Shown piece after piece: positions 13,000 through 15,539 of a stretch of DNA of 64,000 nt; position 1 is the first letter of the stretch, and the number at the start of each line of letters is the position of its first letter. The position numbers and the translations under genes are program-made. This DNA comes from Agathobacter sp. GTDB taxonomy: Bacteria > Bacillota > Clostridia > Lachnospirales > Lachnospiraceae. The notes under the pieces are model-generated. The model ran no database searches, was not told the DNA's origin, and saw only the letters and a program-made list of their open reading frames with translations. The DNA lies in the NCBI GenBank assembly GCA_963596435.1, contig CAVBMG010000006.1, forward strand, positions 5,938 to 69,937, read 5' to 3'.

Positions 13000-13095
13000 A
13001 ATCATTACCTCCATTTTCTGAAATATAAATACTCTTTCTAACCATTACTTTACATTGGATTTGAAAGGAAGTACACTATCAATATAGAAATCCAC

Positions 13096-13112
13096 TTTTC
13101 AGAAAATGAAAA
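13096..13112. promoter_or_regulatory. Putative LysR T-N11-A dyad
   Basis: TTTTCA-GAAAA-TGAAAA between divergent AKR and LysR genes. Confidence 0.5.
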
Positions 13113-13131
13113 CTGAAAGGAGTAGAAAAAT

Positions 13132-13947
13132 ATGCTGAATCTGGAAGAATTAAAGCAATTGGTTGCTTTTGAGGATGCGGGTACATTATCAAAAGTGGCA
13201 GAGGAGTTTCATATATCAACACCATCTATCACTCGCTCCATGAAAAATCTGGAGGAATGTTTTGGTGTGACACTGTTTTATCGGAGTAAAAACAGGATTG
13301 AATTAAATGAAACAGGGCAGGTAGCGGTAGAGTATGCAAGAAAGCTTCTACAGGAAGCAGACCAGATGGTTTCGCAGGTCAGGGCTTATGAGGAAAGGCA
13401 GAAGACGATTGTGGTGAAATCCTGCGCACCGGCGCCTATGTGGGAACTGGTAAAAGAACTGGGTTCAGAGTTCCCTGGGAATACGATATCATCTGCGATT
13501 TGCCAGAATGAAGAGGTGATGCAGTATCTGGAACAGGAGGTCTGCGATATGGGGATTTTGTCTTTTCCGGTTGCTATGGAGAAGTGGGATGTGAGAGAAT
13601 ACATGAAGGAGCACTTATTTGTCTGTGTTCCTATAGGACATGAGTTAGCGGGGCATAAAGAATTGTACTTTGAGGAGCTTAACGGCTTTAACTTCCTCTT
13701 GCGTTCAGAGCTGGGGTTCTGGGATACACTCTGCCGCGAGAAAATGCCTGCTTCAAAGTTCCTGGTACAGACAGACACATCCGTGTTTGATGAACTGGTC
13801 AAGGCATCTTCGCTTCCCTGCTTCACGACAGATTACATTTCAGACCGGGAGAGCGCCTACCCCAATCGGGTATGCGTTCCGATTATGGATGCGGCGGCGA
13901 ATGTTACCTTTTATCTTGTCACGAAAAATAAGGGTGTCAGAGTATAG
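13132..13947 (+). CDS. LysR family transcriptional regulator, divergent from AKR
   Basis: GTLSKVAEEFHISTPSITRSMKNLEECFGVTLF.R HTH. Confidence 0.9.
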   Translation: MLNLEELKQLVAFEDAGTLSKVAEEFHISTPSITRSMKNLEECFGVTLFYRSKNRIELNETGQVAVEYARKLLQEADQMVSQVRAYEERQKTIVVKSCAPAPMWELVKELGSEFPGNTISSAICQNEEVMQYLEQEVCDMGILSFPVAMEKWDVREYMKEHLFVCVPIGHELAGHKELYFEELNGFNFLLRSELGFWDTLCREKMPASKFLVQTDTSVFDELVKASSLPCFTTDYISDRESAYPNRVCVPIMDAAANVTFYLVTKNKGVRV

Positions 13948-13987
13948 CACGGGCTGGACAGGGTGCGATCATATCGGAAATTTGGGA

Positions 13988-14019
13988 TTGACATATTATC
14001 AATAAATGGGTAATATAAT
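13988..14019 (+). promoter_or_regulatory. Sigma-A promoter for the putative RNA + nuclease unit
   Basis: TTGACA at 13988-93; TAATAT at 17-bp spacing (14011-16), overlapping TATAAT at 14014-19. Confidence 0.7.
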
Positions 14020-14022
14020 ATT

Positions 14023-14193
14023 AAAGACAGGCAACTTGAGTGTCTGCCAAGCGTAGAAGTAAGGTGTTGTGCCAGAGGGCAGTGCCTTATGAGCTTTATA
14101 CGGGTTGGACATTTACCACAATCTGGCTAGAAACCATAGGTTTTGAAAGAAAATGTCGAAAGCTCTGCTGTTATTGGCAGAGCTTTTCTTTTT
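14023..14193 (+). ncRNA. Putative structured non-coding RNA (two candidate pseudoknots) upstream of the nuclease gene
   Basis: Pairings read by eye: AGACA 14025-29/TGTCT 14041-45 with loop CTTG 14035-38 complementary to CAAG 14048-51; long stem 14052-69/14080-102 with loop GCCAGA 14071-76 complementary to TCTGGC 14122-27; GACATTT 14108-14/AAATGTC 14151-57 enclosing AAACC/GGTTT; ends in a terminator. Ends approximate. Confidence 0.6.
14159..14193 (+). terminator. Intrinsic terminator between the RNA and the nuclease ORF
   Basis: aaagctctgc-tgttattg-gcagagcttt followed by tcttttt, directly before the AGGAG RBS (14194-98). Confidence 0.8.
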
Positions 14194-14209
14194 AGGAGAA
14201 AATAATATT

Positions 14210-14782
14210 ATGCGAAATATTAAGGATTGTGTATATGCATTTCGTCCACTTTTGAATACTGAATATGAGATTGTATTAGGAAGAAAAGGAGTAGCTGTAA
14301 CACTAAAGATTACTTTTGATAAAAAAGACTGCTTTCATTTAATGGGATTACAATATTTGATTGATCGACCTGAGTTAAATCGAGACAGAGGAAAGATATT
14401 TGATGAAATAATAGAAGGGACGATTACGGTAGAACAACTTGAATCATCAGATTTTTATAAAAAAATAAAAGAACGTATAAATTTTTTACCATTGTTGGAA
14501 AAATTACTGGATAGTAATGATACCGTTTTCAAATATAATCGTAAAGAAAATATTTATTCTATGATAGATGCTGATTATCTAATGAAAAATAATATGGAAG
14601 ATAGAAATCTGTATTTGTTCTTATCACAGGAATTTGAAGAACACTATTTCTGCCGCTCCTTTTTCCCGGAAGAAAGAAAAGACTATACTAAAAACCAATC
14701 TTCATGGACTATGCTTTATAAAAAGAAAAAGGACTTATGTACTGGTAAAGAGATAGTATTGTATGATAAATTAAAAAAATAG
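14210..14782 (+). CDS. PBECR4-like (BECR-fold) putative ribonuclease, 190 aa
   Basis: I.F.K.DCFHLMGLQYL, S.I.ADYL, LYLFL, C.SFFP recalled as PBECR4 family features; AGGAG RBS before ATG 14210; AT-rich. Confidence 0.65.
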   Translation: MRNIKDCVYAFRPLLNTEYEIVLGRKGVAVTLKITFDKKDCFHLMGLQYLIDRPELNRDRGKIFDEIIEGTITVEQLESSDFYKKIKERINFLPLLEKLLDSNDTVFKYNRKENIYSMIDADYLMKNNMEDRNLYLFLSQEFEEHYFCRSFFPEERKDYTKNQSSWTMLYKKKKDLCTGKEIVLYDKLKK

Positions 14783-14825
14783 TAACTACTGAATAAATAA
14801 AAAGGAGACGCAGGGATAAACAGAT

Positions 14826-15539
14826 ATGATAGATAAAAATGGAATCTTGTATGGAATCGGGGTAGGACCGGGAGAGCCGGAGCTTATGACGATTAAAGCA
14901 TTGCGGATCATTCGCAGCTGTGATGTGATTATACTTCCAGCGGCGTCAAAGGAAGCATGTTATGCGTATAAAATTGCATATGAAGTGTGTCCTGAAATAG
15001 AAGAGAAAATTCTGTTGTGCATGCCTTTTCCAATGATTCAGGATGAAAAAGAGCTGGAACTGGCGCATGAGAAGAATTATCATGAGATAGAGGATTACAT
15101 GCGCAAGGGCAAATGTGTTGGAATGTTGACGATAGGAGATCCAAGTGTGTATTCGACATATTTGTATATGCATCATCGCGCTGTTAAGGCAGGTTTTCAG
15201 GCGGTTATGATCAGTGGAGTCCCTTCTTTTTGTGCATCTGCCTGCAGGCTTGGAATTTCACTCGGAGAGAAGAATGAGGAAATACATATCATTCCTGCTT
15301 CTTATGATGTAGAGGAAGCTTTAAAATACAGTGGAACCTGCATATATATGAAGTCAGGCAGGCATCTGAGGGAGCTGCTTGCAGGGCTGCGGGAGCAACA
15401 GGAGAAGGGACGCAGGCTTAGAGCATATGGCGTTGCAAACTGTGGAATGGAGAATGAGCAGGTATATCAGGGACTGGATGAACTGGAGAGAGCAGAAGGA
15501 TATCTTATAACAGTTATTATAAAGGTGGACGAAGAGTAA
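14826..15539 (+). CDS. cbiL: Precorrin-2 / cobalt-precorrin-2 C20-methyltransferase
   Basis: LYGIGVGPGEPELMTIKA, FPM, TIGDPSVYSTY, GVPSFCA, MK motif. Confidence 0.85.
   Translation: MIDKNGILYGIGVGPGEPELMTIKALRIIRSCDVIILPAASKEACYAYKIAYEVCPEIEEKILLCMPFPMIQDEKELELAHEKNYHEIEDYMRKGKCVGMLTIGDPSVYSTYLYMHHRAVKAGFQAVMISGVPSFCASACRLGISLGEKNEEIHIIPASYDVEEALKYSGTCIYMKSGRHLRELLAGLREQQEKGRRLRAYGVANCGMENEQVYQGLDELERAEGYLITVIIKVDEE

Follow-up and report, generated by a model that had tools for sequence, protein, structure and literature searches.

Whether a structured RNA encoded directly upstream of a predicted nuclease gene serves as the antitoxin of that nuclease, and whether such an RNA is new, are the questions raised by a locus of Agathobacter sp. 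in the 64,000-nt stretch of DNA analysed here (the window). The locus runs from a promoter through the RNA and an intrinsic terminator into the gene (Table 1). The TTGACA/TAATAT promoter of the initial annotation was recovered with a 17-nt spacer and ranked first among 9 promoter-like sites (score 10/12, scan of 13000-15500), though the match alone is weak, shuffled sequence yielding 6.5 such sites; a comparable site was detected by a loose pattern at the same position in 35 of the 36 loci that carry the same RNA (drum, see below) and an intact gene, among the matches listed. Judging from the promoter position, transcription would start near 14022-14024. The annotated terminator, ribosome-binding site and 190-aa ORF were found as well, and a 209-aa version of the ORF starting at 14153 was rejected because its start falls within the RNA and homologues begin at Met 14210.

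Table 1. Features of the window locus and of the related three-unit RNA (window positions unless a locus handle is given)
Feature	Position	Strand	Details
sigma-70/sigA-type promoter	13988..14016	+	-35 13988-13993, -10 14011-14016
P0, 5' hairpin	14028..14046	+	beyond the Rfam drum model; 7/7 pairs two-sided, 74% of cells paired
drum RNA core (Rfam RF02958)	14049..14161	+	model positions 1-112; 90.2 bits
kink-turn (k-turn) and stem P2	14050..14095	+	k-turn 14050-14058/14091-14095; P2 14059-14070/14079-14090
pseudoknot 1	14071..14127	+	P2 loop 14071-14076 with 14122-14127
short stem and pseudoknot 2	14103..14157	+	stem 14103-14105/14115-14117; its loop 14108-14112 with 14153-14157
hairpin P4	14130-14144	+	inside the pseudoknot 2 span
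intrinsic terminator	14158..14195	+	13-pair hairpin and T run
ribosome-binding site AGGAG	14194..14198	+	11 nt 5' of ATG at 14210
solo PBECR4 protein, 190 aa, predicted BECR-fold RNase	14210..14782	+	PF18813 profile
three-unit RNA before another PBECR4 clade	L010:1270-1425; L011-L018, L321-L327, L330		uncatalogued

The ORF has a GC content of 28.3% (LysR gene 46.0%, genome 41.3%), the lowest among the 58 ORFs of the window; of the line counts previously given for this bias, those of 22% and of 55% for LysR were reproduced, but that of 32% was not, being 30-33% by the present register. Its neighbours encode a LysR regulator and a tetrapyrrole methylase, in keeping with the earlier statement that no protein antitoxin flanks it, and the remaining window genes encode transporters, regulators and enzymes. 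At least six MATE-family genes, numerous AraC/MerR/LysR regulators and cobalt-transport genes were noted over 1-64000. Neither an integrase nor a transposase was found among the scanned ORFs of the window (1-64000), and the surroundings are metabolic and transport genes with no defence island. The genome holds a single copy each of the RNA and of the protein gene, and the distribution of the cassette is patchy, since 18 same-genus genomes searched, several of them incomplete, yielded no similar DNA.

The RNA proved to be already catalogued. The Rfam covariance-model search matched the drum motif (RF02958; Weinberg 2017) over the whole model, at 90.2 bits versus a gathering threshold of 43 (E = 8e-16), and together with the 3' terminator this makes the RNA a drum member and rules out the new RNA family proposed initially. 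No riboswitch family reached the gathering threshold, so the expectation that the RNA would match neither a riboswitch nor any known motif held for its first half only. That drum ends in a terminator and is associated with proteins encoded close by had already been reported, the main text of that report giving neither a protein family nor a function (Weinberg 2017, PMC5737381), and a drum k-turn is described to fold in vitro in Mg2+ (PMC8191799). A drum-core search pattern retrieved 16 viral loci, all Rfam-confirmed, and at least 119 genome loci, and a looser viral pattern returned the same 16 records.

De-duplication left 69 loci, and an alignment of the window with 63 of them, the six with visibly damaged 5' halves being excluded, supported a 39-pair structure with 85.6% of cells paired (68.8% upon shuffling and at most 43.6% upon sliding) and two-sided changes at 31 of the 39 pairs, figures that are biased in favour of these pairs as they were chosen from the same alignment. 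High pairing was found in P2 (93.8%, 8/10 pairs two-sided), P4 (95%), pseudoknot 1 (93.8%, 5/6 two-sided) and pseudoknot 2 (82%, 4/5 two-sided), and the short helix of the k-turn aligned poorly (57%). Invariant columns were partly set by the search pattern, which imposed the invariance of the short stem. The P0 hairpin extends the motif past the Rfam drum model, and an A-rich linker precedes the 3' strand of pseudoknot 2. Both pseudoknots are therefore backed by covariation, and a conserved structured leader, as foreseen by the initial annotation, is present in the homologues; the dense self-complementarity noted there is only modestly unusual in the single-sequence fold (z −2.22, equalled by 3 of 200 shuffles) and strong by covariation. 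The RNA was also correctly described as lacking tandem repeats, no repeat family having both copies within it.

The assignment of the ORF to PBECR4 was confirmed by the PF18813 profile (E = 1.3e-37, 130 bits versus a cut-off of 27), which aligned residues 4-187 with positions 2-187 of 188; PBECR4 thus spans the whole protein, and no ToxN-type Pfam family appeared at E 0.1. A Protein Atlas search returned PBECR4 only, and the profile itself retrieved 3,583 representatives clustered at 50% identity, fused forms included. His43 and Gly46 are invariant in 27 diverse homologues; among 26 drum-linked ones, His43 is kept in 26/26, Arg89 is invariant and Ser150 is conserved in at least 90%. The conservation of His43 and Ser150 fits the active-site pattern described for PBECR families, namely an N-terminal His and a C-terminal Ser/Thr, which this PBECR4 member shares with the PBECR nucleases and colicin-D-like BECR RNases (PMC5512222). 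The structure model (pLDDT 92) matched known folds weakly, with Z 4.4 for the colicin D tRNase domain (rmsd 2.7, 76 residues), 4.2 for BrnT and 3.2 for RelE, and unrelated rows scored just as high. Foldseek gave no PDB match for the model at E 0.001, and a PDB sequence search gave no solved relative; MazF and ToxN were not among the rows listed in the fold searches, an absence that is non-excluding. Characterised colicin-like BECR proteins are reported to be mostly tRNA cutters (10.64898/2026.08.28.747851).

With a probability of about 0.6, we propose that drum and PBECR4 constitute a mobile toxin-antitoxin cassette working like type III systems, with a colicin-D-like toxin. A single promoter would drive an ∼170-nt double-pseudoknot RNA composed of P0 and drum, most transcription would halt at a constitutive terminator and keep the RNA in excess, and occasional read-through would supply PBECR4, which would probably cut tRNA or other host RNA. 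Surplus drum RNA would bind and inhibit the putative toxin, and once transcription stops, upon phage infection or loss of the element, the RNA would decay and leave the nuclease active. The argument starts from the layout, which matches both type III systems and AbiF-RCd22. In ToxIN/AbiQ, CptIN and TenpIN, the same succession of promoter, RNA, terminator and nuclease occurs with no protein antitoxin, and in ToxIN, CptIN and TenpIN the RNA is described as being kept in excess by termination, the nuclease as being made by read-through and inhibition as occurring through binding; pseudoknots and A-rich linkers are common to these RNAs and drum (PMC13682666). In AbiF-RCd22, a nuclease of non-ToxN fold is likewise neutralised, in cis and in trans, by an orphan motif that precedes a terminator, but AbiF is a HEPN (Abi_2) protein accompanied by repeated abiF stem-loops, neither of which matches at the drum locus (10.1101/2025.04.15.648962). 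Compared with type III systems, PBECR4, here a predicted nuclease, stands in place of a ToxN homologue, and drum is one interlocked fold rather than tandem repeats, although the RNA of a sister clade has three repeated units. From its sequence, then, the cassette resembles type III systems yet is not a member, having no repeats and no ToxN homologue.

Linkage of the two parts is tight from both sides and supports the proposed cassette. From the RNA side, a PBECR4 match lay directly downstream on the same strand at 84 of 135 drum loci (80/119 genome and 4/16 viral) and in no other position at any of the 135 within the flanks examined, which were only ∼300 nt at 39 loci, all counts being among the matches listed. 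Seven drum matches exceeded the cut-off in 151 family genomes, each directly 5' of a same-strand PBECR4 match, and an eighth, below the cut-off, was without one. From the protein side, drum was upstream in 92 of 95 protein-selected loci, a redundant set (∼11 clusters at 90%) with 10 loci clipped by contig ends. Of the other three, one had just 40 nt upstream and two (L194 and L230) were intact genes without an adjacent RNA, which weakens the type III analogy; both kept the terminator and lost the RNA and promoter, upstream of position 1201. A transposase-like gene is inserted at the terminator edge in L194, and a different gene is joined at the terminator in L230. Class-wide (400 genomes), 11 of 15 other PBECR4 loci matched the drum model built here, and the remaining four comprised three with a shorter, related-looking RNA and one contig-edge fragment. 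The short drum-like leaders of L290, L291 and L294 are ∼110 nt, that of L290 reaching 33.8 bits on Rfam drum, below gathering. On plasmids (Enterococcus, Streptococcus), three of five loci have a drum that lacks P4.

Where at least 750 nt of downstream sequence was available, the gene was intact at 36, broken at 19 and absent at 20 of 75 genome drum loci (27, 15 and 19 of 61 after de-duplication), again among the matches listed, and some of the broken genes may be assembly errors in metagenome bins. Such an order is as expected from a costly toxin. Another argument for an RNA antitoxin is that a scan of 141 of the 186 flanking ORFs revealed no protein partner that recurs; DUF3800, considered as a partner, was absent from these ORFs as well. 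The flanks hold mostly housekeeping genes, interspersed with those of recombinases, portals, restriction and further defence functions; their mostly housekeeping nature and the position of the window copy outside a defence island speak against the proposed system, including the putative role in abortive infection suggested initially. At L170, drum is followed directly by a promoter and the start of a repeat-type leader, which suggests that cassettes may insert side by side.

The association of PBECR4 with a terminated leader was not confined to drum. Among 19 non-drum PBECR4 genes, 14 had a terminator upstream (15 of 400 control genes) and 10 both a terminator and a promoter (7 of 400), which also favours a toxin restrained by RNA; their clade-specific leaders gave no Rfam match. 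One of them, the three-unit RNA, forms strand-swapped pseudoknots, with the loop of the first unit paired to the tail of the last, and the loop of the last unit to the tail of the first. In 21 hand-picked rows it was 95.6% paired, its long-range helix reaching 100% with 4/5 pairs two-sided, and pairing of each loop with its own tail was rejected (67-68% paired versus 100% when swapped). Two-unit forms were seen at L322 and L348. The leaders of L026, L029, L031 and L037 consist of 2-3 short hairpin-plus-A-run repeats before a terminator, resembling the classical repeats of type III systems most closely and without an Rfam match, and further distinct structured leaders with terminators precede distant PBECR4 genes at L021, L022, L028, L030, L032, L033, L035, L038 and L299. 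On a tree of 60 PBECR4 proteins (midpoint root, several long branches, non-independent kin), RNA type required 12 changes, the lowest number possible, and drum with its variants formed one group (support 96/86). RNA type thus follows protein clade, which speaks for the proposed cassette, though linkage by itself generates co-phylogeny.

The invariance of His43, as in the PBECR active-site pattern, adds to the case for a nuclease toxin, and three results detract from the type III-like interpretation: the BECR fold matches are weak (best Z 4.4), none of 27 proteins had a PADLOC or NCBIfam match, and the intricacy and conservation of drum exceed the needs of known antitoxins. This intricate fold, with its k-turn and two pseudoknots, would also be explained if the RNA were an obligate cofactor, scaffold or sensor that activates or aims PBECR4 rather than inhibiting it, a role matching the near-constant presence of the RNA with intact genes and having a precedent in RAGATH-18, a motif of the same survey that proved to be a nuclease scaffold (PMC11061315). 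We regard a cofactor as unlikely: the columns that vary are base-paired and the RNA finishes in the terminator, leaving no variable unpaired guide segment; a cofactor would not persist in phage tRNA islands without its protein, and an RNA that outlasts its gene so often would be unexpected.

Equally improbable, in our estimate, is a purely cis-acting leader, i.e. an attenuator, riboswitch or autoregulatory site for the nuclease, to which the invariable 5' position of the RNA, the intervening terminator, the abutment of pseudoknot 2 on the terminator stem and the reported action of RCd22 in cis besides trans (10.1101/2025.04.15.648962) would all conform. Against it speaks, besides the Rfam result on riboswitches, the terminator itself: the homologues have a median hairpin of −20 kcal/mol with a mean pair probability above 0.8 in 43/64, and the covariation scan revealed no conserved anti-terminator helix, a weak argument given that the terminator columns align poorly and the folding model is pseudoknot-free. 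P0 matches the terminator over 8 nt, but this match lacks conservation across subtypes and was rejected as an anti-terminator. Orphan copies adjoin tRNAs, one being directly 5' of a tRNA, and skipping-rope, another RNA treated below, lies 3' of PBECR2/3 genes and is unable to attenuate these. Least probable is that the RNA is itself the effector (an sRNA or ribozyme-like RNA) and PBECR4 a non-toxic processing or binding protein, since, for all that the RNA stands alone at 20/75 bacterial loci (among the matches listed) and in phages and that drum was suspected by Weinberg 2017 of some sophisticated biochemical function (PMC5737381), a single protein family, PBECR4, goes together with several RNAs that have no relation or a distant one to each other, its gene sits behind a terminator as toxic genes do, and its nearest folds are toxins.

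In phages, drum occurs as an orphan. Three viral drums lie inside tRNA clusters, and no PBECR4 was found in five drum-bearing viral records searched, three of them at least 95% complete. As these clusters hold drum without PBECR4, the orphan copies would have to function in trans. They may be antitoxin mimics like pseudo-ToxI, in which the RNA part is similarly carried by phages without the toxin (PMC3475682); unlike pseudo-ToxI, each drum copy is a complete folded RNA and resides in a tRNA island of an uncultured phage. Taken with the arrangement in this and many other gut bacteria, the pattern suggests drum as a candidate RNA antidote to PBECR4 and hints that the spare copies of some phages disarm it. 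The viral record L048 has, 40 nt beyond its first drum, a second and weaker drum-like match (34 bits), and one tRNA call in its cluster carries a CTA anticodon. Visual inspection identified the three-unit RNA in 16 of the 27 viral loci matched by the pattern (L331-L357), 2 of which had PBECR4 downstream; tRNAs lay within 1 kb at 8 of 14 such loci scanned, and PBECR4 was absent from five records, one complete. A proviral fragment, L354, carries both RNAs within 700 nt (1336-1446 and 658-678). DUF3800-XI was seen adjacent to the three-unit RNA at L347, within a phage tRNA island, and at the bacterial locus L325:1721-1768. In annotated phage genomes, neither the protein nor the RNA was matched.

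The 2017 survey highlighted both drum and skipping-rope as intricate and widespread RNAs with no function assigned (PMC5737381), and in the literature searched, which lay outside the Weinberg supplement on these proteins and most subscription papers, nothing linked either RNA to PBECR proteins or to an antitoxin function; the passages describing PBECR nucleases as phage or polyvalent-protein effectors mention no RNA antitoxin (PMC5512222). RNA and protein are thus both catalogued, and what was not encountered in this literature is the link between the two and its widening to further PBECR families and to phage islands. Relative to drum as published, the partner is now named as PBECR4, whose gene without exception follows drum in the same orientation among the matches listed, and P0 is added. 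More tentatively, and at somewhat less than even odds, PBECR nucleases, solo and capsid-fused, may form a large RNA-neutralised toxin class unrelated to ToxN and AbiF, with drum as antitoxin of PBECR4, skipping-rope of PBECR2/3, and uncatalogued RNAs such as the three-unit RNA, which gut phages might stock in tRNA islands as decoys against tRNA-cutting defences. If this is true, RNA antitoxins act on a further toxin fold, the third beside ToxN and HEPN, a family of ∼3,600 cluster representatives (50% identity, fused forms included) is affected, and some of the orphan RNAs crowding phage tRNA islands are explained as counter-defence. With named nuclease families now tied to drum and skipping-rope, their function becomes directly and cheaply checkable.

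For skipping-rope, 12 of 14 scanned upstream ORFs at 20 loci (L358-L377) matched PBECR2/3, three of the 12 being minor-capsid fusions, one of which resides in the genome of the window. There (G000:C60:15983-16168, L366), two tandem skipping-rope copies lie behind a minor-capsid protein that ends in PBECR2.
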